Part shown: positions 5,597-39,375 of the stretch, piece after piece | Layout: each line of letters begins with the position of its first letter | Position numbering within the stretch: position 1 is the first letter of the stretch | Origin: a virus | DNA: 64,000 nucleotides | Strand: one strand, 5' to 3' | IMG/VR virus record: IMGVR_UViG_3300042374_000295 | Location: 4,394-68,393 of that record | The notes under the pieces: model-generated | Told to the model about the DNA's origin: nothing | Database searches by the model: none | Seen by the model: the letters and a program-made list of their open reading frames with translations, nothing else | Translations under genes and position numbers: made by a program

Positions 5597-5627
5597 CAAA
5601 TATAAACCTAAAAGTTTAAAATGCAAA
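5597..5627 (-). promoter_or_regulatory. Bacteroidota housekeeping-sigma promoter TTTG-N19-TATATTTG
   Basis: Matches the established -33 TTTG / -7 TAnnTTTG consensus. Confidence 0.65.
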
Positions 5628-13983: not shown

Positions 13984-14223
13984 ATGTGCTCATAGTGATC
14001 TGGAAACCCGTCGTACGTCTCCATTAATCCATAGAGTGCTCTTGGGTTGGATCTTCGGTTATGGCCTGGTAGGTGACAAGGTAGGATGCCGGGACCTCTG
14101 CCACTGGATCCTTTCCAAGCCAGTAGGACATAAGCCCATTTGTTAGGTAGTGTGTGTCCCACACAAACTGAATGGGAGCCCTGTCGGTCTGGAGCGTGTG
14201 CACGGTTGCTATGTATTTTGATT

Positions 14224-14568
14224 TCATTTTATTGTCGGTTTGTTGTATGTCTTCTCTAGCCACACCTTAAGCTCGTGGCTGCTTCGTCTTTCGTTCTGTA
14301 GGTAGAACAGGTCCCATATGTCCTGCCACGGTGACCTTGGCTCTACCGGTTTCTCTGGGTAGACCTGTATGATGTGGGCCTGCTTATCCTTGAGCTCAAA
14401 CTCAACCCACACGTCACAATTATTTGAAAAACTGTGACACTTTACCGTCTTGCCAACTATGTGCCCAGGGATCTCGTTGTAGTCCCTGTAGTGCACCTCG
14501 TTAGTATCGCAGTCGTACAGTCCTATCATATATCCTCGCACCATATGGGTGTCTTCTCGCCAACCCAC
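14224..14568 (-). CDS. Hypothetical protein (true start probably MIGLYDC near 14529)
   Basis: ORF within a coupled gene string. Confidence 0.5.
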   Translation of the reverse strand: MGWREDTHMVRGYMIGLYDCDTNEVHYRDYNEIPGHIVGKTVKCHSFSNNCDVWVEFELKDKQAHIIQVYPEKPVEPRSPWQDIWDLFYLQNERRSSHELKVWLEKTYNKPTIK

Positions 14569-14765
14569 GATCCGGCTATGTTGTAGTAGAAGTGGTCAAG
14601 TGCGTCCTCCTCTGTCATTCCCTCGGCCATGAGTATCTCAATACACTTCTTCATTGAATATATAAGCCTGAAGTCTCTGGTGCAGATACCTATCACAGCG
14701 TCATCAAAGCCGTCTGCCTTTAATAACTCCTCGTCCCCGTATGATTCTATTAGTCTATCTAACAT
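14526..14765 (-). CDS. Conserved hypothetical phage protein (xDGFDxAxIG family)
   Basis: LLKADGFDDAVIG...IYS..KCIEIL...M..EDA...FYYNI.G.WVGEKTP. Confidence 0.7.
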   Translation of the reverse strand: MLDRLIESYGDEELLKADGFDDAVIGICTRDFRLIYSMKKCIEILMAEGMTEEDALDHFYYNIAGSWVGEKTPIWCEDI

Positions 14766-14766
14766 A

Positions 14767-15078
14767 CTACGCGTCTCCCTTAGGTCCCATTAAACTTGGA
14801 TTGTAACCGTTATCCCTCTCCTTGATATTGCTGTGCGCCAGCTCTGCCGCTACGGTCAGCACAATCATGGTAAGCTCATCGGACGCCTTACACGAGGTGT
14901 ACAGCGCGGAGGCTAGGCAGGGCCCTGTACCCACAATTGCTGTAATGGCTGCCTGGCCGCTGTTGGTTACAAGCATAAACCCCTGGTCAGGGTTTTTTTC
15001 TTCGTTCATTAACTCGCTCACCTTTTCGGCAAGCTTTACCAATTTTTTTAGTTCTGGGTTCTTTACTTCCTGTTTCAT
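14767..15078 (-). CDS. Hypothetical protein
   Basis: ORF preceded by the promoter at 15086-15117. Confidence 0.6.
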   Translation of the reverse strand: MKQEVKNPELKKLVKLAEKVSELMNEEKNPDQGFMLVTNSGQAAITAIVGTGPCLASALYTSCKASDELTMIVLTVAAELAHSNIKERDNGYNPSLMGPKGDA

Positions 15079-15085
15079 AATGGAG

Positions 15086-15117
15086 CAAATATATATAAGA
15101 ATATATTACTATGCAAA
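15086..15117 (-). promoter_or_regulatory. Promoter TTTG(CATAGTAA)-N20-TATATTTG
   Basis: Bacteroidota consensus with the shared TTTGCATAGTAA extension. Confidence 0.7.
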
Positions 15118-15119
15118 TT

Positions 15120-15293
15120 TTATTTTAATGTCTTTGACTCAACCTCCCTAATAATCTGATCAACAGCCGTAAGTATCCTGTCCCTGGCAGACGTGGCGTA
15201 GAACGCATTGGGTGACGCGTAGCCAAATATGGCCGCTACGTCTAGCTGCTTGAAGTACCTCTTGTAGGGCCTAACCTTTTTCCTTGCTTTCAT
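15120..15293 (-). CDS. Small basic HTH-like protein (57 aa)
   Basis: Manual translation MKARKKVRPYKRYFKQLDVAAIFGYASPNAF...; TATATTTG lies 5 nt upstream of the ATG. Confidence 0.55.
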   Translation of the reverse strand: MKARKKVRPYKRYFKQLDVAAIFGYASPNAFYATSARDRILTAVDQIIREVESKTLK

Positions 15294-15414
15294 GACGGCA
15301 AATATAGTACAAAATCATAGCATATGCTAAGTTTTACACGCGGTGGAGACAAATATTCTGGGGGTAAGTATGCCCTATAGGTATGCTATTATCTAACTAT
15401 CTGATACTCATCAA

Positions 15415-15464
15415 GATTTGCTTTTTTTGCTTTTGTTTGCTTTCGTTTGCTTTAGTTTGCTTTA
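15415..15464. repeat. Iteron-like array of five TTTGCTTT units, 9-10 bp period
   Basis: Seen directly; matches 26966-27004 in inverted orientation. Confidence 0.75.
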
Positions 15465-15929
15465 TTGTAATTCGGTTCTCCTTAGGGATCCTCTTTATAT
15501 CTATAGATTTTTTTCCTTTATGTTGGGAGAGTAGGCTCTAACTAGGCATACCCCTATATTGCTAACCTACCCCACTGTCATTTACTAAGGCACTGGGGGC
15601 CTGTTCTACTTAACCAGGGGGCCATCTTTACTAAAGGGGGTGGGCTCTAAGTGTTTGGGTGAGGTGAATAGGTAGGATACCCATACCTCGCAAACTAAAC
15701 CAAGACAAACCATACTAACCCACCCCACCTTTCAACTATCTAATTGTCAATCAGTTGAGTCGAACAAAGTAAGTAAACTTATCTGACTTAAAGTAAGTGC
15801 AAGGCAAGTGATAGCAAGGGGTAGCGTGTGGTGTGCCATGCTTAGCACCAATGTAAGCAAGGTGGTGCACATGGGGTAGGGTAGGGGAGGGGTTGATACA
15901 CAAGGGGTTGAGAGGGGTAGAAAGCATCT

Positions 15930-15957
15930 AGTTAACATAATGTTTATTATAAGACAG
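15930..15957 (-). other. dif-like XerC/XerD recombination site
   Basis: Minus strand CTGTCTTATAA-TAAACA-TTATGTTAACT; 11-6-11 layout, right arm 10/11 identical to the E. coli XerD arm TTATGTTAAAT. Confidence 0.7.
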
Positions 15958-16182
15958 AAGTGGAGGCTAAATAGCAAGACTTCCATACAGCCCTTCTAAG
16001 CGACTATCTCCCTAGGAAAGGTATCTAAGGTAGGGTGAGGGGGAGAAAGTGTGGTGCAAGGCGTATCTTTGACTGCAAAAGGCAAGTTCCCTCCCTCACT
16101 TTCCATCTCAAAAAAAGTCGGCCAAGAATAATACACCTCTCGCCTCTCTTCCCTATCTTTGCTGACCATTACAATACATCCC

Positions 16183-16839
16183 ATGTCAGTAGAGCATACA
16201 TATACCAAGCATCCTAAAGGTAAGCATAGAGCATCTGACGAGGTGGAGAGCGTTCTCCCCTCTGCTGAGTATAAAGCCTTATTGTCTTCCATCCCTATTA
16301 AGCACATAATGAATGATGATAGAGTTAAGACTGCCATGTTTAGACGGCAATGCCATAGGGAGGAAGTTAACGAGGGTATTCGCCTAGGTAAAGAGTCCTT
16401 AGCCTTTGGATATCTTGTTGGATTAATCCTTCCTTCCGTGGTGGCTAAGGTGCAGTCATCTGCCTTGTCTCCCTTTCGCTCTCTGACTGCGCACCATGTC
16501 CATGTGTTGTTGTGTGTGTGGGTAGTTCAGCAGTTGAATGATGGTGTAGTAAGGCTTGGGCAGTTATTACCCTACAATAAGAAGGATACAACAACTCAGA
16601 GGCGCAAGGTGTTGGGTGAGCTAATCTCTCTAGGCTATGTGGAAGAATTGAACCACTTGGATGTACACGCACGGAGTGGCAAGGTCTTGAAGCCTATATT
16701 CAATAACTCCAATACCACTAAACACTATGCTCTGACAAGGCTTGGCGAGAGGTTGACCGACGAATTTAATGCCATGTTCAGCAAGGCTCACTCCAAGGCC
16801 ATTGGTGAGTTTTGGATTTCCTCCCTAGACAAGCTATAA
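16183..16839 (+). CDS. Winged-helix (MarR-like) DNA-binding protein
   Basis: LTAHHVHVLL...LGELISLGYVE...YALTRLGE wHTH pattern; start uncertain. Confidence 0.5.
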   Translation: MSVEHTYTKHPKGKHRASDEVESVLPSAEYKALLSSIPIKHIMNDDRVKTAMFRRQCHREEVNEGIRLGKESLAFGYLVGLILPSVVAKVQSSALSPFRSLTAHHVHVLLCVWVVQQLNDGVVRLGQLLPYNKKDTTTQRRKVLGELISLGYVEELNHLDVHARSGKVLKPIFNNSNTTKHYALTRLGERLTDEFNAMFSKAHSKAIGEFWISSLDKL

Positions 16840-17089
16840 TAACTATCTATTTCTCAGAGGCTTACAAGCAAGTCTCACGCATTCATTGGGTTTGCCGATA
16901 TTCGGTGTTTTTGATGCCTAACTTTGGCCAATAATTGCTGTTTTTTGGCTTAAAAATGGATTCTTCTAAAATTATTTACAAAATTATTCTCTCTCATTTT
17001 CAATAGGTTACAATCTATTTTGTACTTTTTTTAAAAATATATTTTTTTTATTGAATTATCTGCCCGAGTATTGCACCACTGAATCGGAC

Positions 17090-17415
17090 TATTAATATTC
17101 TCCCACATTCAGCAGTTCTTTCACTTATCTTATGTATGTATGCGAGGCCTCTAGTAAGGCACGACATATTGCACCATATATACACAAGACATTTGTGGTT
17201 CTGAAACCACACCGACCGAAAATCTAATGCCGTGAGGCAGTAAGAGGGTTATCCAAACTATGAGCAGACAAAGTAAGACCATAGGGAAACAAGTAGGGAG
17301 TGTGGCGAAGAGTTCTTTGAAATATAGGGTTTGTTACCCGACCAATTGGCACGATAAGTAGTAGGCAACCCACGAGGGGCAAAAGCCGAAGCGAATGTGC
17401 ATAATCTAACAATTC
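17090..17415 (+). ncRNA. Structured early leader with boxA-like sites
   Basis: ORF-poor; stems TGTATGTATG/CATATATACA, GCCT/AGGC, TGTGGTT/AACCACA, TGCC-GTGA-GGCA; AGTTCTTT near 17114 and AGTTCTTTGAAA at 17311-17322. Confidence 0.45.
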
Positions 17416-17422
17416 TTCTATA

Positions 17423-17503
17423 AAGCAGATTTAAAAATGGTGTACAAGTTTAAAGGTCGACATCGGCTCTTGATGTGAGGTTCGATTCCTCGCTCTGCTT
17501 CCA
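17423..17503 (+). ncRNA. tRNA-like element 1 (degenerate; acceptor stem, T-arm, CCA)
   Basis: AAGCAGA...GTGAGG-TTCGATT-CCTCGC-TCTGCTT-CCA with internal ATGGTgtaCA; no canonical anticodon arm. Confidence 0.65.
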
Positions 17504-17516
17504 CAATTTTAACAAT

Positions 17517-17744
17517 ATGGCTATCAAATTAAAGCGATTAAACGAAGGCAATTATACCTTCGAAAGCACACACTACAAAGTAAGCGTATACAAATACCAA
17601 AGCAATGGCGAGACCTTATGGACATACGAGGTTACTCGCAAGAGCGATGGCTTCACACTACGCAATTGGAATGACCCTTTTTACACCATGAAAGCGTGTA
17701 AATTAGGGGTGGAATCAGAATTAATAGACCTACCTTTAATATAA
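17517..17744 (+). CDS. Early hypothetical protein
   Basis: Likely start MAIKLK just after tRNA-like element 1. Confidence 0.6.
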   Translation: MAIKLKRLNEGNYTFESTHYKVSVYKYQSNGETLWTYEVTRKSDGFTLRNWNDPFYTMKACKLGVESELIDLPLI

Positions 17745-17751
17745 ATATATC

Positions 17752-17958
17752 ATGGAAAAACCACAATTCACACTCGCAGAAGCCCACGAAATTCAACGCC
17801 AACACCTTTGCGAATGGGCAAAAGTGCTCAAGACATCAGTTTATTTAGCACTCCTACAACACGCCATAGAGTCCAATAAAAGCGTTACTGACCCTTGGGA
17901 AGTATTCAGAGGTCAAAGTATAAGCACTTGGGTTCGAAATTATTCACTTAACAATTAA
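17752..17958 (+). CDS. Early hypothetical protein
   Basis: ORF with ATATCATG start context. Confidence 0.6.
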   Translation: MEKPQFTLAEAHEIQRQHLCEWAKVLKTSVYLALLQHAIESNKSVTDPWEVFRGQSISTWVRNYSLNN

Positions 17959-17962
17959 TATC

Positions 17963-18184
17963 ATGAGCAAAGCAATAACCCTATCGCTATGGATGACCAA
18001 CTCCAAGCTAAAAATAGACCAACACGAACGCGAAATATCGCAAGACTACCAAAGGCTTAAAGAATTAAACAAAGAAATGGCTAACCTATTCGTATCAATT
18101 GATAACCACAATAAAGAAATCGAATTTCTAGAGTTCAGTATAGCTGAGACAAGAAAGCAGAAGGAGGCTCTTAAGAATGCATAG
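17963..18184 (+). CDS. Early coiled-coil protein
   Basis: ORF with CAATTAATATCATG start context. Confidence 0.6.
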   Translation: MSKAITLSLWMTNSKLKIDQHEREISQDYQRLKELNKEMANLFVSIDNHNKEIEFLEFSIAETRKQKEALKNA

Positions 18185-18374
18185 TCGCACAATCAATGTC
18201 ACGCCCAACTATAGCAAGCGTACATTCACACTCAGAGTAAAGTGGAGCGATGGTGACACCTCAAAGTATCGCACATCGCCTATGGGCAAGGCAGAGTTCG
18301 AGGAGTGTACTTATAACACACAAAGCGATTGGGCACACTTTCTACTTAAAAATGAGTGCACCAAACTAAACTAG
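18177..18374 (+). CDS. Early hypothetical protein
   Basis: Coupled ORF. Confidence 0.6.
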   Translation: MHSRTINVTPNYSKRTFTLRVKWSDGDTSKYRTSPMGKAEFEECTYNTQSDWAHFLLKNECTKLN

Positions 18375-18414
18375 TGGATGGTCGCAGAGGGGTTCGACTC
18401 CCCTCGCACTAGCA
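18371..18414 (+). ncRNA. Mini-tRNA-like element 2 (no anticodon arm)
   Basis: CTAGTG-GATGGTCGCA-GAGGGG-TTCGACT-CCCCTC-G-CACTAG-CA. Confidence 0.7.
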
Positions 18415-18433
18415 AATTTAACCAATTAATATA

Positions 18434-18703
18434 ATGAACTACAAATTAATTCAAAAAAGACAAAAAGAGTCGGGCTACAATCAAATGCAAAGACTCATTA
18501 ACAATGGCTCAGTATGGCTTATGGAGGGCTCAATGGGACGCGAAGCAATGCACTTGCTAGAGTGTGGGGCGTGTATGTTACCTACAAAAGCGTTCCGTGA
18601 CTTCTATGGCAATCGTATCCCCTCTAGGTACGAACTTAAGTCGGGTAGCAAGGGCACATATGCCAATAGCGTAGAGTATTATCTAAACAACGAAGCAATT
18701 TAA
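18434..18703 (+). CDS. Early hypothetical protein
   Basis: Q.LIN.G.VW.MEGS.GR.AM..LE.G.CML pattern recalled from phage early proteins. Confidence 0.65.
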   Translation: MNYKLIQKRQKESGYNQMQRLINNGSVWLMEGSMGREAMHLLECGACMLPTKAFRDFYGNRIPSRYELKSGSKGTYANSVEYYLNNEAI

Positions 18704-18715
18704 CCAATTAATATC

Positions 18716-18955
18716 ATGAAAAAACCAATCAACCATTGGGATTCCTATGGCGTATTCGCTATAGCAACCTACATTCAACAAGCAGAAGCAATAGATAGCA
18801 ATGAAGCAAGAGACCTTGACTCATTGTGGGATGAAGCTATTTTTCTTTACAATAATTTTGTTGTAAGCAAATTTAACGATGTCAACCAAAGCGAACTTGA
18901 CTGCATATATCAATTCCTTGACGCTCCTATGACCTTAGACAATGTAATAGGCTAA
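18716..18955 (+). CDS. Early hypothetical protein
   Basis: ORF with CAATTAATATCATG start context. Confidence 0.6.
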   Translation: MKKPINHWDSYGVFAIATYIQQAEAIDSNEARDLDSLWDEAIFLYNNFVVSKFNDVNQSELDCIYQFLDAPMTLDNVIG

Positions 18956-18973
18956 ACCAAATCAATTAATATC

Positions 18974-19747
18974 ATGAACAAATATCAAATCAAATTAACA
19001 AGAGTGTGGGACACCTACACCGAAATCGAGGCTCTGACAATGGAAGACGCCTTGACAATGTATGACACCATGGTCACCAATGGCACGATGGCTCAAAAGG
19101 AGCTAGAACAAATGGGCATCTCTGACGAGAGCTACAAGGTGACCTTGCTAGAGCGAGAATCTGACTCAACGCCCACACCCCCAAAAGTGTGGCGCGACAA
19201 TGACCAAGTCGAATGGCAATACTACGCAAGAGAATGCAGTGTAACGGGTGAGGGGATGTATGAAGGTTGGGTGGTGGATGGTGGCTTAATGTATTTTAAG
19301 TACGAAAGCGATGCCATTGAGTATTGCAAGAATCACCTAAACATGACCTTGGCTGAGGCGTACGAGGATAGCGAGGAGAACGGAGGTGACGGCTTTTATT
19401 GGACATCATGGGAAGACGAAAGCGAGTACCAATATCGCCTCGTTGATGGCGTTTTAATTGAGGAGGGTGACGAGCGCTTTGAATATGATTACGAAGAGCC
19501 TATAGATGAGGACACACTAAAGCAAGAGTACATGACAAGCACTGAAGAGATGCAACATCGCATGGCAATGATTCTAGACGACATGAAAGTAATCAGAGCA
19601 TTTATTAATGAGCAAGGCTTGAACGAAGTATTTCAGAAGCCTACAAGCATGGCTGATGAGTGTTGGACTCACATTAACAACATAGAGATAGCGTGTGACA
19701 TTGATGACAACGAGTGTCTGACATGGTCAAAGTTCAGCAGAGGTTAA
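18974..19747 (+). CDS. Acidic early protein, apparently a fusion of small modules
   Basis: 257 aa, very D/E-rich; contains a C..TGEGM.EGW...FYWTSWE module. Confidence 0.6.
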   Translation: MNKYQIKLTRVWDTYTEIEALTMEDALTMYDTMVTNGTMAQKELEQMGISDESYKVTLLERESDSTPTPPKVWRDNDQVEWQYYARECSVTGEGMYEGWVVDGGLMYFKYESDAIEYCKNHLNMTLAEAYEDSEENGGDGFYWTSWEDESEYQYRLVDGVLIEEGDERFEYDYEEPIDEDTLKQEYMTSTEEMQHRMAMILDDMKVIRAFINEQGLNEVFQKPTSMADECWTHINNIEIACDIDDNECLTWSKFSRG

Positions 19748-19795
19748 CTGACGAGCCTTCACTAGGCGAAACAAGGCGAAAGCCTTGTCTTAATC
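19742..19795 (+). ncRNA. Hammerhead ribozyme (type I), predicted cleavage after C19789
   Basis: Stem I GGTTAA/TTAATC; core CTGACGA; stem II GCCT-TCACT-AGGC; GAA; stem III ACAAGGC-GAAA-GCCTTGT; cleavage triplet GTC. Confidence 0.9.
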
Positions 19796-19805
19796 ATATA
19801 TTATC

Positions 19806-20696
19806 ATGAACCAAACAATTTTCAATCAAACATTAGACCTTTTAGAGTCTACTAACTTAAATTGGTCAGTGACCAAAGAGCCTTTATTCACTGCTGATGG
19901 CAAAGCATCCGAGACCTTTGGAATGTACCGCAGTGACACAAACGATTGGCTTGGGAGCGTGGGTAACAAGTACGCACCCATGCAGAACCACACACTCGCT
20001 GAGACCATTGTAATGGCGTCGCAAGGCATCCAATGTCAAAAGCATCGTGGTGGCTCGTTAGATGGTGGTAGCAAGGTGTTTATCCAATGCGAACTGCCCG
20101 ATGAACACATTGGCAATAGTGGTGTGAAGCGTTGGCTGACTGCACTCAACTCGCATGACGGCTCATCGTCTATTGGCTTTGGCTCTACATCGCAAGTGGT
20201 GTTTTGTCAGAATATGTTCCATAAGGCGTTGAAGGAGTTAGCCAAGTTCAGACACACGGCATCTGCTGAGGAGCGTGTACGCCTAGCCTCTGAGGACTTG
20301 AACAAAGCGTTGTTGTCTGACAACATCCTAATGACTGACTTCAAGCGTATGGCAGACCTTAAGATAGGCGAGGAGGTGATAGAGCGTGTAATTAGACGCA
20401 TATTCACATTGGACGCAAAGCAGACTCAGACAAGCGATGTGTCAAGCCTTAAAAAGAATCAAGTCACGGCATTTGCTGATAGCCTACAAACGGAAATTAA
20501 CACCCATGGTCAGACCTTGTGGGCATTGTTCAACGGAGTAACGCGTTACACCAACCACTACGCATCTCCTAAGGATGCCGAAGCAAAGCAAACATACCTT
20601 ATGGTGGGTGGTGGCTACAAGAACAATCTGCTAGGCTTCGAGGAGTGTATGAAGTGGCTAGGCGAGAACACTAAGCAAGTTTATTCATTGGCATAA
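19806..20696 (+). CDS. DUF932 family protein (phage/plasmid TIGR03299-like)
   Basis: LNWSV.KEPL, LG.VG..Y...QN, GSLDGG.KVF, NSHDGSSS, VVFCQN, FRHT and TLWALFNGVT motifs. Confidence 0.85.
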   Translation: MNQTIFNQTLDLLESTNLNWSVTKEPLFTADGKASETFGMYRSDTNDWLGSVGNKYAPMQNHTLAETIVMASQGIQCQKHRGGSLDGGSKVFIQCELPDEHIGNSGVKRWLTALNSHDGSSSIGFGSTSQVVFCQNMFHKALKELAKFRHTASAEERVRLASEDLNKALLSDNILMTDFKRMADLKIGEEVIERVIRRIFTLDAKQTQTSDVSSLKKNQVTAFADSLQTEINTHGQTLWALFNGVTRYTNHYASPKDAEAKQTYLMVGGGYKNNLLGFEECMKWLGENTKQVYSLA

Positions 20697-20703
20697 AGCC
20701 TCT

Positions 20704-20750
20704 AGGGTGTATGGTGAGCAGTAGGGGTTCGAATCCCTTACCACCCTCCA
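20704..20750 (+). ncRNA. Mini-tRNA-like element 3 (no anticodon arm, ends in CCA)
   Basis: AGGGTG-TATGGTGAGCA-GTAGGGG-TTCGAAT-CCCTTAC-CACCCT-CCA. Confidence 0.72.
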
Positions 20751-20768
20751 AATTTAATAAAAAATATC

Positions 20769-20963
20769 ATGAACAAATTAACCAAACTAACAAGAGAGTT
20801 ATTGCTAATGCATTTAGACGATAGCTACAAACAAATTAGCATCATTAGAGACACCATTAAGGTAATCGAGGTGGAGTATGTCCAAGATTTACGAATAGAC
20901 ATATACCTTCTACAACAAAAAATAGAAAGCATAAGCACAATTATAGCCGACAACAAATTTTAA
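20769..20963 (+). CDS. Early hypothetical protein
   Basis: ORF with AATATCATG start context. Confidence 0.55.
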   Translation: MNKLTKLTRELLLMHLDDSYKQISIIRDTIKVIEVEYVQDLRIDIYLLQQKIESISTIIADNKF

Positions 20964-20964
20964 A

Positions 20965-21225
20965 ATGAACCTACCACAATCAATCGAAGTAAGGCTACCT
21001 TGGGAGGAGACTCCCGTGGTGGTCAAGATGACCGACGAGTTGGCAACTACCTTCATATGGTATGTATGCGAAAGCGATAACGTAGCAGAGGTGTCAGAGG
21101 GCATCTACGCCACGCAAGTGTGCCAATACCATGACCGATGCACCCTACACGAACTGTTGAAGGACTTCATCGAGGAGTATATCCCAAGAGACGAACTAAT
21201 CATTATAGACAATGCAAATATATAG
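20965..21225 (+). CDS. Early hypothetical protein
   Basis: Coupled ORF. Confidence 0.55.
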   Translation: MNLPQSIEVRLPWEETPVVVKMTDELATTFIWYVCESDNVAEVSEGIYATQVCQYHDRCTLHELLKDFIEEYIPRDELIIIDNANI

Positions 21226-21439
21226 AATCAACACAACGGCGTGGGAGGAGGAAGACTTAGTACTCTTGACCACATTAAAGGAAAGCGAAATCGAGAGAGT
21301 TATCACGCCTATAGTATTTAGAGAGCGTGAGGGTGGCAACGATTACGACAATGACGAACTAGTAGACGCCCTAAAGAAGGAGTACCCATCTGCCCACATT
21401 GAGCAGTATCAAACCGAGTTACCAATTATAATCATATGA
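21212..21439 (+). CDS. Early hypothetical protein
   Basis: Coupled ORF. Confidence 0.6.
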   Translation: MQIYRINTTAWEEEDLVLLTTLKESEIERVITPIVFREREGGNDYDNDELVDALKKEYPSAHIEQYQTELPIIII

Positions 21440-21669
21440 AAAAAGCAATTTTAGTTCTATTCATGGCGATAGCCATGGTAGGTCAGTCACAAGTTGTAGT
21501 GACTTTAGCCAAAAAACAACAAACCGAGCAGAGCCTTACGGCTACATCAACCAAGACAAAGTATTTGTACAATGACCTACCCGTGTGGATGTCAGTCAAC
21601 GGAAAGTACTTCATCGTGAAGCAAGCGAAGAGTGGTAATTTTTACAAAGTATATGTGGAGGTAAAGTAA
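21436..21669 (+). CDS. Small exported protein with signal peptide
   Basis: MKKAILVLFMAIAMVGQSQ signal-like N-terminus; S.NGK.FI...KSGN.YK C-terminus. Confidence 0.6.
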   Translation: MKKAILVLFMAIAMVGQSQVVVTLAKKQQTEQSLTATSTKTKYLYNDLPVWMSVNGKYFIVKQAKSGNFYKVYVEVK

Positions 21670-21670
21670 T

Positions 21671-21946
21671 ATGAACACAGAGTTAAACAACCAACTAATC
21701 AGAGCAATGGTGAACCACCTAGAGGCTCTTGTAGAAAGCGAAGAACTAAGCGTAAACGATGTATCATACATCAACGATGACCTAGACCTTATGGAGGTAT
21801 CGTACTTCGGATATACGCCCGATGGCGACAAGCAACAAGAGTACGCAGACGCAATAGAGCGTGGCGACCTAGAGACCATTGGCTTCCTTGAAGCGTTAGA
21901 GTTTTTAAGTTCAATGATTAAACATTATTCAACCAAACTATCATGA
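21671..21946 (+). CDS. Early acidic hypothetical protein
   Basis: Coupled ORF. Confidence 0.55.
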   Translation: MNTELNNQLIRAMVNHLEALVESEELSVNDVSYINDDLDLMEVSYFGYTPDGDKQQEYADAIERGDLETIGFLEALEFLSSMIKHYSTKLS

Positions 21947-22368
21947 GCAGTCCAATCAACCCCCTAGAGCTAGCATCTGAGCTAGCTCACCTTAGGGTTC
22001 TAGCTGAGAGCAAAGACCTTATTAACGAAAGCGATATGTATGTCCAAGACACCGAGGGTGTTTTAATCTACAAGGATGACATCCAAGACCGATTCAATAT
22101 CTGGTATGACTTTTACCTAGACCACATAGAGGAAGCGACAAGACCATCATTGCCTTACTCACACATCGTTGAGTTTGAATACGAGGGCAAAGCGTTCACC
22201 TTTGAGATTGGCATCAGCAGTGAGGACGAGTGGTTTGGCGTGAACCAACACAACATGACCTTCGACATACACTACTGCGAGGACTACAACGAGATAAGCG
22301 TATACCGAGTAAGGTACAACAAGGCAGACTATTCAGAAACAATTCACTCACAAGCAATCAAATTATGA
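21943..22368 (+). CDS. Early hypothetical protein
   Basis: Coupled ORF. Confidence 0.6.
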   Translation: MSSPINPLELASELAHLRVLAESKDLINESDMYVQDTEGVLIYKDDIQDRFNIWYDFYLDHIEEATRPSLPYSHIVEFEYEGKAFTFEIGISSEDEWFGVNQHNMTFDIHYCEDYNEISVYRVRYNKADYSETIHSQAIKL

Positions 22369-23159
22369 AGACAATTAAAAGCGAAACATGGCTACCAATA
22401 TTCAGTGGCTATTACAACACAGTGTGGTCACCAGACGAGACACACCTACTATGGGACTCAGACATAGACTTCGAAGACATCGAGGTGGACTACGAGTCTT
22501 ACTACAAGTACACTGCCATCGACATTGTAGATGCAGTGCAGACTGCCCTAAGCCCATTTGTCAAGGACATCACCTTTCAGAAAGTGGTGTCCCCTAAGTA
22601 CTACAACTTCACCAATGACTCTATTGATGTCGAGGTGGAGTACTATCCCGAACAACTGCAAAAGTATTGTGCTGAGTTCAGAGCAGAGCTACAAGTATAC
22701 CTTGAGGACAAGTACACCTCTAGGGATGGCTTCATCTCAAACTTCAGCAATAGCGTTGAGGAGTGGGAGGAGAGCACCAAGTTCTTTACGGACTTCTCCT
22801 CAGAAAGCAAGGGCTACCACACTCTGGGCGCAGTCCTAGACTTCATACTTTACAATGAGGATATTCGCGAGGAGGAAATATTTAATGTAGTAGAGCCCGA
22901 CATCGACACCTACATAACCATCATTACGCAAAGCGTTTCAGAGTTAAGCAATGAGGACACCAAAAAGTTCTTAGAGGCACACCTAGTCAAGATCGATTTT
23001 GAGTTTGGCTACCCAAGTGTACTGAAAGCGAGATGCCAAGAGAAGGCTGATATAGTAGGCTCTACATGGGAAGAGATAATCATAGAGGACTACAAAGATG
23101 ACTTAATCGACATGATAGGAATCAAGAGAGTCAGACACGATTTAACACCTACTGAATAA
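22365..23159 (+). CDS. Acidic early protein
   Basis: Likely start MKTIKS at 22365; PIFSGYY, SPKYYNFTNDSI and SRDGFIS motifs. Confidence 0.65.
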   Translation: MKTIKSETWLPIFSGYYNTVWSPDETHLLWDSDIDFEDIEVDYESYYKYTAIDIVDAVQTALSPFVKDITFQKVVSPKYYNFTNDSIDVEVEYYPEQLQKYCAEFRAELQVYLEDKYTSRDGFISNFSNSVEEWEESTKFFTDFSSESKGYHTLGAVLDFILYNEDIREEEIFNVVEPDIDTYITIITQSVSELSNEDTKKFLEAHLVKIDFEFGYPSVLKARCQEKADIVGSTWEEIIIEDYKDDLIDMIGIKRVRHDLTPTE

Positions 23160-23164
23160 AATAT

Positions 23165-23196
23165 TTTGCATAACAAAAAATAATTATATATAATTG
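23165..23196 (+). promoter_or_regulatory. Promoter TTTG(CATAACAA)-N20-TATAATTG
   Basis: Near-consensus Bacteroidota promoter. Confidence 0.55.
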
Positions 23197-23207
23197 CAAC
23201 CACAAAA

Positions 23208-23423
23208 ATGTCAAAACCAAGTTCATACACGGGACGCATGATGTCCCTCCTGACCATCCTAAAGCAGGGTGAGTCATTTCATACCGAAGTGAGAGCCTCC
23301 ATCGTCCTCCAATATGCGAAAGCAGAGGGCGTGGAGGTTACCACCGAGTCGGTTATTCAAATCGATGAGTACAAATCTGCTCATCCTAGGCTAAGTAAAT
23401 TAACAAAAGTAACAATCATATGA
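23208..23423 (+). CDS. Hypothetical protein
   Basis: ORF after a promoter. Confidence 0.55.
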   Translation: MSKPSSYTGRMMSLLTILKQGESFHTEVRASIVLQYAKAEGVEVTTESVIQIDEYKSAHPRLSKLTKVTII

Positions 23424-23644
23424 AGTCATTCTTAAAGTCACACACAAAGCAAGCCGAATTAGAGTACCCTTGCTTAAAAACAAAAAAAGACACCGAAGGT
23501 CACACAATAGTCCTATTCTCCTCATTTAGGGAGGGGACTTGCGTTCACACAACGAGACCTCAGAATTTTGTTGGAGACTATAGCACAAATTGGGGTGAAG
23601 AGTTTTTCGAACCATTCACAGGAGAGCTAGTTCTTAAAAATTAA
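23420..23644 (+). CDS. Hypothetical protein
   Basis: IVLF....GT.V......GDYS..W....F.PF.G pattern. Confidence 0.6.
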   Translation: MKSFLKSHTKQAELEYPCLKTKKDTEGHTIVLFSSFREGTCVHTTRPQNFVGDYSTNWGEEFFEPFTGELVLKN

Positions 23645-23648
23645 TACC

Positions 23649-23753
23649 ATGATACCAATATTCATTCTAGCGTTTATCATATTCTGCATTGCAATGGTCT
23701 TAATATCAAAAGCAGTTCATACATGGAGGTCACAAGATGGCGATGACTTCTAA
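23649..23753 (+). CDS. Small single-TM peptide (34 aa)
   Basis: Manual translation MIPIFILAFIIFCIAMVLISKAVHTWRSQDGDDF. Confidence 0.45.
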   Translation: MIPIFILAFIIFCIAMVLISKAVHTWRSQDGDDF

Positions 23754-23760
23754 AAAATAA

Positions 23761-23792
23761 TTTGCATAGTAATTTATTTTAATGTAATATTG
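23761..23792 (+). promoter_or_regulatory. Promoter TTTG(CATAGTAA)-N20-TAATATTG
   Basis: Shared TTTGCATAGTAA motif; ATG 4 nt downstream. Confidence 0.65.
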
Positions 23793-23796
23793 TGAA

Positions 23797-23973
23797 ATGC
23801 AAATAGGAGACAAAGTAAAGTGGCGTTCCTTCAAGGTCATCGATAGGTGGGGAGAGGGCATCGTCATCCTTGTAGTCCGAAAGAAGCACGTCTACGAATA
23901 TCACATTCAAACAAATATGTCGGGCATACACTCAGTTATCATAAGATACACTGGCGATATACATCCCATCTAA
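23797..23973 (+). CDS. Small SH3-like protein (58 aa)
   Basis: Manual translation MQIGDKVKWR...GIV. Confidence 0.45.
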   Translation: MQIGDKVKWRSFKVIDRWGEGIVILVVRKKHVYEYHIQTNMSGIHSVIIRYTGDIHPI

Positions 23974-24021
23974 TCCGACAGCTATGCACACCAACACTAA
24001 CGAAAGTAAATTAAATAAAAA

Positions 24022-24756
24022 ATGTCAAGGTCAAACCCAACATCAACACAAAGCAATCCCTCAACCAGATGGTTCGAGTGGGATTCAGACAACTCTTGCG
24101 TAAAGTATTATGACAAGGTTGAAAAGAAAAGCGTATCGGTTAAATTGCCGTTTACGTTCCTAGTTTTAGATCAAACTGCGTCCATCACGGGGTGGCACGA
24201 GTCCTCTACAAGTGGCATCTACTCTAACGAGGTTAGAAGCACAAAGGCTAGCTCACTGCTAGTACGCTCCTTTAAGGGTGGCACAATCGCTCAAGGTATC
24301 TACCAAGACATCAAAGAGAAAACAAAGTCCTCTGGAGGCAAGTTCACGGCTAACGTGTACATAGCCTACAAGGATGGAGGTGAGTACAAGATTGGTGCTA
24401 TCATGTTCAAGGGAGCGTCCCTACAATCATGGTCTGACTTTAGCAAAGCGAATCGCTCTAAGCTAGAGACGGATGCCATTCAAATTGCATCGTTCGAGAC
24501 TGGTAAGAAGGGCAAGGTGACCTACACCACGCCTACCTTTAAGGTAATCGAAACATCTAAGGAGGCAGAGGCTAAAGCAATCGAGCTGGACAAGGTTCTG
24601 CAAGCGTACTTAAACGAGTACATGGGTAAAGCCATAGCCGAGGAGACAACGTCCACCACAAGCGCTCCTAGTGAGTCTGAGGCTAAGGATATGCTGGCTC
24701 AACACGGATGGAAACCAATCGAGGTAGAAGAGGACTTTAGTGACCTTCCATTCTAG
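24022..24756 (+). CDS. Putative ssDNA-binding/annealing protein
   Basis: Acidic C-terminal tail EEDFSDLPF typical of SSBs; located in the replication module. Confidence 0.55.
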   Translation: MSRSNPTSTQSNPSTRWFEWDSDNSCVKYYDKVEKKSVSVKLPFTFLVLDQTASITGWHESSTSGIYSNEVRSTKASSLLVRSFKGGTIAQGIYQDIKEKTKSSGGKFTANVYIAYKDGGEYKIGAIMFKGASLQSWSDFSKANRSKLETDAIQIASFETGKKGKVTYTTPTFKVIETSKEAEAKAIELDKVLQAYLNEYMGKAIAEETTSTTSAPSESEAKDMLAQHGWKPIEVEEDFSDLPF

Positions 24757-24863
24757 GATGTCAAAAGCAAAAGAATTGTTCATGCAGATAAGGGAGAGGG
24801 AGTCTAACAAGGCTCTCTCTCTTGAGTCTGATACACCAAAACACTTACAACCAATTAAGAATC

Positions 24864-26096
24864 ATGAAAGTAAAAAAAGTATCAATCAAGGACTTCAAAG
24901 TCCTAAAGAACATTGAAAAAGAAATCAATGGCAATAACATTATTCTCCTAGGAGACAACGGGAAGGGCAAGAGCTCATTCATCCAATTCATAGAGATAGC
25001 ACTCGGCAAGCAGACAACCATACCCGACATCCAACATGGTGAGGGGACTATATGGGTTGACAAGGCCGGCCAAGAGTGGACGTTTCACGTTGAGTGGAAG
25101 AAGGGAAAGCCTCTAGTAACCGTGACCAGCCCAGACGGGTTCAAGGACAATAGGAAAAGCGTCCTAGCCAATGTGGTGGGAGCGATGGACTTCGACATAG
25201 ACACATTCGTAGAGATGTCAGAGTCAACAGCAGGTCGCAAGGAGCAGGTTAAGGTGTACAAGTCATTCCTTCCACAAGAGGTTCAAGACTTTGTAGCCGA
25301 TCAAGAGTACAGAGTAAAGCGTTCGTATGACGAGCGTACTGAGAAGAACAGAGAGGTCAAGACACTCCAAGGCGCAATAGCAGAGCATCCGTTCACCAAG
25401 GTGTTGGATATGCCAGACAAAGCAATCGATACTAAAGCATTGACATTCCAAATAGAGGCGGCTTTAGAGCACAACAAGAAGGTTCAAGGGGCGAAGGAAA
25501 GGTTTCAGTCTAGAAAGAATGATATTGACGCCATCACCGAGCAGATAAGAACCCTAGTAGGAAAGCGTCAGTCTTTTATGGACATGAACGTGGAGGCTGA
25601 GGGCTGGCTAAGGCAGAACGATGAGCAGGACGTTAGCGCACTTCTGGAGCAGAAGGATAACGCCTACGATACCAACGCCAACTTCGAGAAGAAGGCAGAC
25701 TACAACAAGCAGGTAGCCATGATGCAAGCATTAAGCGAGGAGAGTGGTGAGCTGACTGCATTCATAGAGTCAAGTAGCCAAGCCATTGCTGATGCAATTA
25801 GAGACTGCGACTCACCTGTGGATGGACTAACATTTGATGCAGATAGTCTAATATATAATGGAGTTCCAGTATCAAGCGCGTCGCTATCATCGTCTGAAAT
25901 CATGCATCTAGGCATCAAGCTAAAGATGGCTGAGAACCCAGACCTAGGCATACTATTCATACAACGTGGTGAGAGTCTTGGTGCTCAGAGATTGAAGGAC
26001 ATCCAAGACCTAGCCAAGAAGTATGACTGGCAGATAATTATGGAGCAGGTTGAACGTGGAAACGAGAAGTTGACCATAGAAATAATGAAAGCATAA
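24864..26096 (+). CDS. SMC/RecN/Rad50-like ABC ATPase
   Basis: IKDFK, Walker A GDNGKGKSS, central coiled coil, signature-like LSSSE, degenerate Walker B ILFIQRGESL. Confidence 0.8.
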   Translation: MKVKKVSIKDFKVLKNIEKEINGNNIILLGDNGKGKSSFIQFIEIALGKQTTIPDIQHGEGTIWVDKAGQEWTFHVEWKKGKPLVTVTSPDGFKDNRKSVLANVVGAMDFDIDTFVEMSESTAGRKEQVKVYKSFLPQEVQDFVADQEYRVKRSYDERTEKNREVKTLQGAIAEHPFTKVLDMPDKAIDTKALTFQIEAALEHNKKVQGAKERFQSRKNDIDAITEQIRTLVGKRQSFMDMNVEAEGWLRQNDEQDVSALLEQKDNAYDTNANFEKKADYNKQVAMMQALSEESGELTAFIESSSQAIADAIRDCDSPVDGLTFDADSLIYNGVPVSSASLSSSEIMHLGIKLKMAENPDLGILFIQRGESLGAQRLKDIQDLAKKYDWQIIMEQVERGNEKLTIEIMKA

Positions 26097-30275: not shown

Positions 30276-30306
30276 TTTGCATAGTAATTAATTTTATTTA
30301 TATTTG
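30276..30306 (+). promoter_or_regulatory. Promoter TTTG(CATAGTAA)-N19-TATATTTG
   Basis: Perfect Bacteroidota consensus. Confidence 0.75.
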
Positions 30307-39344: not shown

Positions 39345-39375
39345 CAAAGATATGAGTAATTATTTACTATGCAAA
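39345..39375 (-). promoter_or_regulatory. Promoter TTTG(CATAGTAA)-N19-TATCTTTG
   Basis: Consensus match, 4 nt before the GT ATG. Confidence 0.7.

Follow-up and report, generated by a model that had tools for sequence, protein, structure and literature searches.

The window analysed here, a stretch of 64,000 nucleotides (nt) of viral DNA, comprises bases 4394-68393 of IMG/VR virus record IMGVR_UViG_3300042374_000295, which is 68,393 base pairs (bp) long, carries direct terminal repeats, is rated complete and comes from an uncultured tailed phage. At one gene boundary of a compact early operon this DNA encodes a type I hammerhead ribozyme, which lies on the sense strand between an open reading frame (ORF) of 257 amino acids (aa) and a gene for a DUF932 protein, as expected for the clustered intercistronic hammerheads of phages. 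The features at this boundary are the following, the parts of the ribozyme having been assigned from its sequence.

17517-23159, plus strand: compact early operon of about 16 ORFs, from the map of gaps between ORFs
18974-19747, plus strand: upstream ORF, 257 aa, with its UAA stop in stem I
19741, plus strand: unpaired A directly 5' of stem I, the same base in 96% of 124 distinct copies of the family; candidate tertiary-contact residue
19742-19795, plus strand: type I hammerhead ribozyme, from sequence, covariation and a shuffle control
19742-19747 and 19790-19795, plus strand: stem I, 6 bp, GGUUAA / UUAAUC
19748-19754, plus strand: core CUGACGA
19755-19767, plus strand: stem II and its loop, GCCU-UCACU-AGGC, 4 bp and a 5-nt loop
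19768-19770, plus strand: GAA of the core
19771-19788, plus strand: stem III and its loop, ACAAGGC-GAAA-GCCUUGU, 7 bp
19789, plus strand: C17, with the predicted cut between C19789 and U19790
19790-19805, plus strand: predicted 5'-hydroxyl leader of the DUF932 messenger RNA (mRNA), 16 nt, A/U-rich, no Shine-Dalgarno sequence
19796-19797, plus strand: A and U, the two bases that follow stem I on its 3' side (in the family A at +1 in 82% and at +2 in 69%); candidate tertiary-contact residues
19806-20696, plus strand: DUF932 gene, 296 aa (Pfam PF06067, E 2.6e-28; PHROG 1221)

All core positions are canonical, including the pairs G10.1-C11.1 and A15.1-U16.1 (A19771-U19788) and a C at H17, and the topology is that of type I, with stem I open and stems II and III closed by loops. 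The UAA stop codon of the upstream ORF (19745-19747) falls inside the 5' strand of stem I, the predicted 3' cleavage product begins UUAAUCAUAUAUUAUC, and the AUG follows at 19806. An earlier note on this DNA had described a complete type I hammerhead at 19742-19795, and its core, its three stems and C19789 prove exact to the base; its assignment of the downstream gene to DUF932 holds on the Pfam match listed above, and its remark that cleavage leaves a 16-nt A/U-rich leader like those of neighbouring genes is borne out by the sequence and the gap map, since the leader ends ...UAUC-AUG, a context common to those genes. The 257-aa ORF at 18974-19747 matched no Pfam or PHROG family.

To gauge chance occurrence we used a descriptor that comprises the core, the GAAA, a U-H cleavage site and three stems with minimum lengths of 4, 3 and 3 bp, with dinucleotide-preserving shuffles as controls. 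It matches once in the window, both strands included, and four times in 300 shuffles (about 0.013 per window), and a strict version with the observed stem lengths (at least 6, 4 and 6 bp) has no match in 300 shuffles. The hammerhead is also conserved in the nearest relative, locus L001/L010, whose DUF932 protein is 98% identical: 50 of its 54 nt (93%) are identical to those of L001, as against 56 of 92 (61%) in the adjoining upstream coding sequence. None of the four changes breaks a pair: one, in stem I, is G-U to A-U; one, in stem III, is A-U to G-U; and the remaining two fall in loop II.

Relatives were sampled as 80 viral loci that encode DUF932 relatives. The descriptor finds type I hammerheads in nine of them, with 14 matches on the gene strand and none on the other, and three matches in 20 shuffles of all 80 loci. 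Eleven distinct hammerheads could be aligned and show double-sided changes in 12 of 16 pairs; since pairing is a condition of the descriptor, the percentage of paired positions in this alignment is partly circular. A covariance model built on the window hammerhead and 10 relatives (R1) gives the window copy 69.4 bits, though this is a seed member; it also recovers two copies from outside the seed, L064:855-916 and L055:2613-2662, and finds hammerheads in only nine of the 80 DUF932 loci. Searches of whole records with R1 gave a single hammerhead for the window genome, a single one, invariably right before DUF932, for each of three relatives, and five, inside 2 kilobases (kb), for the L064 record. 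The L055:2613-2662 element is hammerhead-like at 38.5 bits, has the core CCGAUGA with C in place of U4, and does not appear in the whole-record search at E <=0.1; it could represent a variant or a copy that has lost activity.

The family extends far beyond the DUF932 loci. A pattern of fixed length, restricted to core positions, the pair that closes stem II and two loop bases, and in which stems I and III play no part, identified at least 120 stretches in viral contigs, and R1 applied to 80 viral loci among the matches listed recovers at least 122 full-length hammerheads. An alignment of 112 distinct rows (again among the matches listed) has 98.2% of its cells paired, a figure that is partly circular because the rows were picked and aligned by descriptor or model, and has 641 double-sided changes that touch 14 of 16 pairs; sliding the partner by one to three columns lowers pairing to 31-36%. 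The same pattern run on species genomes and filtered with R1 gave 26 matches listed, among which 10 loci score at least 44 bits. Eight of these are titled as Bacteroidota, two of them (Chryseolinea and Daejeonella) by genus only, which we take to belong there, and the other two are from Parvibaculum and a contig of a Dehalococcoidales metagenome-assembled genome.

At gathering score Rfam matches no family anywhere in the window, pistol, twister and other ribozymes included, so that the Infernal search with Rfam hammerhead models proposed in the earlier note comes out negative; one SNORD73 match in the sensitive mode was judged to be chance. Nor does any Rfam hammerhead reach gathering score in 20 DUF932 loci, five of which carry the hammerheads described here, or in 14 further loci picked because they carry them. 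The window hammerhead and its relatives are a large type I subfamily that lies below the Rfam gathering scores and is therefore missed by routine annotation, with at least 122 copies in the 80 viral loci sampled with the pattern. The supplementary alignments of Perreault et al. (2011) may already include some of its members.

Several positions outside the paired core are also conserved. The outermost pair of stem I is G-C in 96 of the 112 distinct rows, and U1 and A3 of loop II are invariant in the 11 unselected sequences from DUF932 loci. Together with the A residues at -1, +1 and +2 they are candidate sites of a contact that joins stem I to stem II. Pairing of loop II with the flank in a pseudoknot was considered by eye as a general feature and rejected: some relatives can pair UUAAU with AUUAA of the leader, and the window, L010, L012 and L015 cannot.

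The 122 R1 hammerheads of the 80 viral loci (among the matches listed) are placed by strict rules with respect to the surrounding ORFs, which for this purpose are simple ATG-to-stop calls and not curated genes. An upstream ORF of at least 30 aa ends nearby in 97 of the 122, and in 88 of those 97 its stop codon ends between -5 and +9 relative to the first base of stem I. The core itself can supply the stop: the UGA of CUGANGA terminates the upstream ORF in 24 of the 97, and there a terminating ribosome would sit on the ribozyme core. This overlap provides a simple experimental handle on the interplay between translation termination and ribozyme folding. On the other side, an ORF starts no more than 120 nt from the cleavage site in 101 of the 122, with a median leader of 27 nt; most leaders measure 19-41 nt, and so the start codon generally lies outside stem I. 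Seven family leaders are shorter than the 16 nt of the window.

The neighbouring gene is much less constant. DUF932 lies downstream of none of these 101 hammerheads and is the upstream gene of two, and because this sample of the family is independent, the association of hammerhead with DUF932 is a trait of this clade and not of the ribozyme family; the earlier note's treatment of the hammerhead as an element tied to DUF932 does not carry over to the family outside it. Conversely, we rejected the idea that DUF932 is a gene generally associated with ribozymes, since a hammerhead occurs in nine of 80 DUF932 loci and DUF932 follows none of the 101 hammerheads of the independent sample. The only extra ribozymes that Rfam reports at gathering score in 40 of the 80 DUF932 loci are pistol ribozymes of L064 (below). 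A literature search found no paper that links hammerheads with DUF932 and, judged by titles and the beginnings of abstracts, none on the function of DUF932.

Spacers in the 5.6-kb early operon of the window are 0-18 nt long except for three, at 18375-18433 (59 nt), 19748-19805 (58 nt) and 20697-20768 (72 nt). The second of these holds the hammerhead, and each of the other two holds an RNA that resembles part of a transfer RNA (tRNA):

20699-20758, plus strand: tRNA-like minihelix immediately behind the stop codon of DUF932, from sequence, compensatory changes and covariance model R2
18368-18421, plus strand: second tRNA-like minihelix, between ORFs 18177-18374 and 18434-18703, from R2

The element at 20699-20758 consists of an acceptor-like stem GGGUG/CACCC, an AUGGU bulge and a T arm AGGGG-UUCGAAU-CCCUU followed by U-CCA. 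R2, a covariance model of this minihelix and its counterparts in relatives, gives it 68.3 bits as a seed member, and gives the element at 18368-18421, which is not in the seed, 37.7 bits (E 1.2e-6). In the latter the UAG stop of the upstream ORF (18372-18374) lies inside the acceptor-like stem. The minihelix of L010 has compensatory changes in its T stem relative to that of the window, L011, L012, L015 and L017 have the same architecture after DUF932 with other acceptor sequences, and R2 finds extra copies on the gene strand of relatives. Thirteen distinct copies from the window phage and six relatives are 99.2% paired, with double-sided changes in eight of 10 pairs; the T loop is UUCGANU, and the arm is followed by U-CCA or U-CAA. 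The elements thus have a covarying acceptor-like stem and T arm and coincide with no tRNA gene: ARAGORN calls no tRNA anywhere in the window, the minihelices included, and Rfam calls nothing at the spacer 20697-20768. A probe pattern for the minihelix gave 81 matches listed in 79 loci of viral contigs, of which nine pass R2 and five lie in tRNAs called by ARAGORN; the nine come from eight unrelated viral contigs, and ARAGORN calls none of them a tRNA. An origin as a phage attachment site (attP) or fragment of a host tRNA was considered and set aside, as an exact 28-mer of the minihelix is absent from 185,579 species genomes and the compensatory T-stem changes relative to L010 favour a structured RNA. 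Minihelices of acceptor stem and T arm are substrates of ribonuclease (RNase) P, and we predict that the elements described here are processing signals of the RNase P/Z type.

Among relatives, one kind of element can take the place of another at the same gene boundary. Hammerheads stand on both sides of DUF932 in L013, L014, L016 and L064. The slot after DUF932 holds a hammerhead in L013 and a minihelix in L011, L015 and L017, while the leader and gene that follow are homologous; the same slot with homologous flanks and either element argues for selection for an RNA cut at the gene boundary and not for the ribozyme itself. In the phage genome of L064, which is 60 kb long and has terminal repeats, a run of adjacent spacers is occupied first by five hammerheads and next by three pistol ribozymes at Rfam gathering score (RF02679; 2639-2718, 3096-3141 and 3700-3764, 40.6-54.4 bits), which makes eight ribozymes in about 3.3 kb. 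The locus thereby offers a clean natural comparison, in which hammerhead and minihelix replace each other in one slot among closely related phages and pistols occupy adjacent slots in a further relative.

Some further occupants of these positions were seen. The L064 leaders after each hammerhead (for example 525-553, 917-936 and 1148-1167) share UAACCCUAAAUU between the cleavage site and the next start. At L024:1446-1478 a DUF805b RNA motif (RF02914, 37.9 bits, cut-off 35.6) lies directly before DUF932, in the slot that the hammerhead fills in the window. A full-length transfer-messenger RNA (tmRNA) gene and three tRNA genes directly follow DUF932 in L043:2430-2788 and L059:2677-3706, in the slot that the minihelix fills in the window.

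The host was approached through the window itself. No GenBank phage gave a blastn match to window positions 18900-20800, and tblastn with the DUF932 protein returned only relatives of less than 30% identity in actinophages and crAss-like phages, which say little about the host. A Shine-Dalgarno-like 4-mer precedes only seven of 73 ORFs in the window, and the ORF leaders of the phage are rich in A and poor in G, 60% of them having A at -3. The motif TTTG-N17-23-TAnnTTTG, which we take to be the Bacteroidota promoter consensus (-33/-7), occurs 10 times in the window against 3.0 expected, a number that none of 100 shuffles reaches. The leaders and this promoter-like motif suggest that the host is probably a Bacteroidota bacterium, although no tool named a host. 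Scans of 14000-26000 found neither an excess of sigma-70 promoters (22, compared with 23.0 in shuffles) nor of intrinsic terminators (8, compared with 9.3), and no promoter immediately before DUF932.

From these observations we consider it likely that the element is a constitutive type I hammerhead that processes the early polycistronic mRNA and so releases a monocistronic DUF932 mRNA. Hammerhead cleavage leaves a 2',3'-cyclic phosphate and a 5'-hydroxyl (5'-OH) end. The RNA would fold once the polymerase has passed 19795 and would cut itself between C19789 and U19790. The upstream mRNA would retain its UAA stop codon and end in stems II and III with the cyclic phosphate; the weak 6-bp stem I would dissociate after the cut, and the DUF932 mRNA would start with a 5'-OH and an unstructured A/U-rich leader of 16 nt. 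At its other end, tRNA-processing enzymes of the host would cut the minihelix that follows the DUF932 stop codon, freeing DUF932 as an mRNA of about 0.9 kb whose stability and translation would be uncoupled from those of its neighbours. Hammerhead, pistol and tRNA-like minihelix would then serve these phages as interchangeable cassettes of mRNA punctuation. Self-cleavage in vivo, cutting of the minihelices and an effect on expression are what we infer from the sequences.

Several results weigh against this account. ViennaRNA folds the 54 nt at -16.3 kcal/mol with stems II and III formed, stem I does not form on its own, and the z score of -2.29 is matched by five of 200 shuffles that fold equally well, so that thermodynamics alone would miss the motif. 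In its sensitive mode Rfam scores the element at 17.9 bits with RF00163 (Hammerhead_1; cut-off 34, E 0.13) and at 19.7 bits with RF03152 (RAGATH-1 hammerhead; cut-off 56.3), short of membership in that family; since loci known to bear these hammerheads also have no Rfam hammerhead match at gathering score, we read the RF00163 shortfall as a limit of the curated model and not of the motif. No pseudoknot or loop-loop contact between stems I and II could be shown, and no consistent pseudoknot was seen on inspection by eye, so that fast cleavage at physiological Mg2+ is no more than a possibility. The minihelix at 20699-20758 folds with unexceptional energy (z -0.55). Finally, the window genome has one hammerhead only, so that the punctuation picture here depends on the predicted cutting of minihelices. 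To these points must be added the simple ORF calls behind the placement counts and the partial circularity of the pairing percentages.

A wider generalization is more tentative. Phages of Bacteroidota-type hosts may punctuate their early mRNAs with interchangeable cassettes (a hammerhead, a pistol or a minihelix cut by RNase P/Z) that are welded to the stop codon of the preceding gene and followed by a short A-rich leader. If so, then without pairing to a Shine-Dalgarno sequence each gene would gain its own mRNA with a fresh 5' end near the start codon, self-cleaving ribozymes of phages and bacteria would have a concrete and testable role, and a ribozyme and a substrate of host enzymes would be functionally equivalent.

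Cleavage might instead activate translation of DUF932, by removing a block that stem I or the ribozyme as a whole imposes on the 30S subunit and by leaving a free 5' end 16 nt from the AUG. The 3' strand of stem I occupies -16 to -11 relative to that AUG; with Shine-Dalgarno sequences before seven of 73 genes and leaders rich in A and poor in G, accessibility of the leader should matter, and the leaders of the family are likewise A-rich, G-poor and constrained in length (mostly 19-41 nt). The available text of a 2026 report on fungal RNA viruses describes type I hammerhead cleavage in the 5' untranslated region as essential for translation initiation (PMC13725137), but that eukaryotic precedent concerns cap-independent initiation, a different mechanism. 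The energies involved at the window site are modest: opening -16 to +15 costs 2.5-2.6 kcal/mol in the uncleaved RNA and 1.1 in the cleaved RNA, a difference of about 1.4 kcal/mol, and stem I is worth -1.5 kcal/mol. In the family the AUG mostly lies 19-41 nt from the cleavage site and hence outside stem I, and the position of the ribozyme is fixed to the upstream stop codon and not to the downstream start. We regard translational activation as less likely than not. The earlier note had proposed that cleavage frees the translation start from stem I; the computed energies go slightly in that direction, but the effect is small, and the family AUG usually lies beyond the stem.

Processing of the polycistronic mRNA, our preferred reading, could in principle also lower expression, if the 5'-OH marked the DUF932 mRNA for rapid decay and so kept the dose of DUF932 low relative to the upstream genes. 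Hammerhead chemistry does leave such an end, and the glmS ribozyme product with a 5'-OH is degraded by RNase J1 in Bacillus subtilis. The available part of a 2019 review suggests that processing could yield transcripts of differing stability (PMC6765202). On the other hand, a ribozyme before nearly every gene, as in L064, would silence the whole operon, and the leaders downstream of the cleavage sites resemble normal initiation regions. We judge decay to be an improbable purpose of the element.

Far less probable still is that a host ligase of the RtcB type circularizes or re-ligates a DUF932 RNA bearing 5'-OH and 2',3'-cyclic phosphate ends. Hammerheads do flank DUF932 in the four loci named above (L013, L014, L016 and L064), and such a fate was contemplated for clustered hammerheads by Perreault et al., who, in the available text, report that no such products were detected (PMC3088659); at the 3' site of the window stands a minihelix, which would not leave a cyclic phosphate, and nothing in the sequence speaks for ligation. 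There is likewise hardly any chance that the motif is a fortuitous match or an inactive relic without function: its scores below the Rfam gathering thresholds and its single copy in the genome fit such a view, but none of 300 shuffles reaches the observed stem lengths, conservation is 93% compared with 61% in the flanking coding sequence, covariation is extensive at homologous positions of relatives, and the bias in strand and position is strict.

That phage spacers can hold hammerheads has been known since 2011, and the element itself is ordinary; what is added here are the placement rules, the subfamily missed by Rfam and the natural exchange of ribozymes and minihelices. As far as the available text of that work goes (PMC3088659), prophages have clustered hammerheads on either side of single genes, with cleavage both in vitro and in vivo, and the proposed role of phage hammerheads is to cut long transcripts into gene-length mRNAs. 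For the hammerhead of the haloviruses HF1/HF2, which lies 13 nt before the start of an early gene (16 nt in the window), the same text gives a mapped RNA 5' end no more than 3 nt from the cleavage site. The hammerheads treated there share with that of the window the canonical core, the sense orientation, and a place in spacers of polycistronic phage transcripts where they flank single genes or short blocks. The emphasis of that text falls on type II and pseudoknotted forms, whereas the window hammerhead is of type I with an open 6-bp stem I, a 4-bp stem II and a 5-nt loop, and its subfamily is distinguished by a conserved unpaired A at both ends of stem I and by U1 and A3 of loop II. The words "stop codon" do not occur in the main text of PMC3088659, and the stop-codon junction is not discussed there.

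Two curated families come close to the subfamily. RF00163 and RF03152 have the same type I topology and core, and the short A/U-rich stem I and GACU-type stem II of the window hammerhead are reminiscent of RAGATH-1. The extra 5' hairpin of RAGATH-1, however, has only a weak match in the window, and positions -12 to -2 are unconserved in the 124 family members. In the available text of the review cited above (PMC6765202), twister, hammerhead and pistol ribozymes are said to share gene contexts, such that unrelated classes are found there and the exact motif seems unimportant, and the purpose of such ribozymes is described as remaining to be defined.

For the minihelices, the closest described analogue is the t-elements of plant mitochondria, which according to the available text of Forner et al. 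2007 (PMC1920247) mark both 5' and 3' ends of mRNAs, probably through cleavage by RNase P and/or RNase Z. Both are look-alikes of acceptor stem plus T arm between protein genes. The window minihelices differ in belonging to a phage and not an organelle and in carrying a conserved AUGGU bulge where a tRNA has its D and anticodon arms; the stop codon inside the acceptor-like stem of the element at 18368-18421 would be awkward if RNase P cuts 5' of the stem.

A few other features lie near the operon or resemble its signals. The leader of its first gene (ATG at 17517) holds a weakly called structure:

17422-17505, plus strand: cloverleaf-like tRNA look-alike, weak call

It has a 7-bp acceptor AAGCAGA/UCUGCUU, an AUGGU motif, a T arm and an "anticodon" loop of 4 nt, and folds at -22.8 kcal/mol (z -1.92); R2 gives 15 bits (E 0.46) over 17466-17512, and ARAGORN calls nothing there. 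The 677 nt that precede the first operon gene (16840-17516, plus strand) are free of genes, and by eye about 17070-17420 is richer in G+C than its surroundings; this part could contain the promoter of the operon or a structured RNA. Repeated motifs of the type TTTGCATAGTAA...TATATTTG, at 15086-15117 (minus strand), 30276-30306 (plus strand), 39345-39375 (minus strand) and 5597-5627 (minus strand), fit a Bacteroidota-type promoter, and promoter-like near-variants of the TTTG motif lie upstream of gene blocks at 23160-23207 and 23760-23796.

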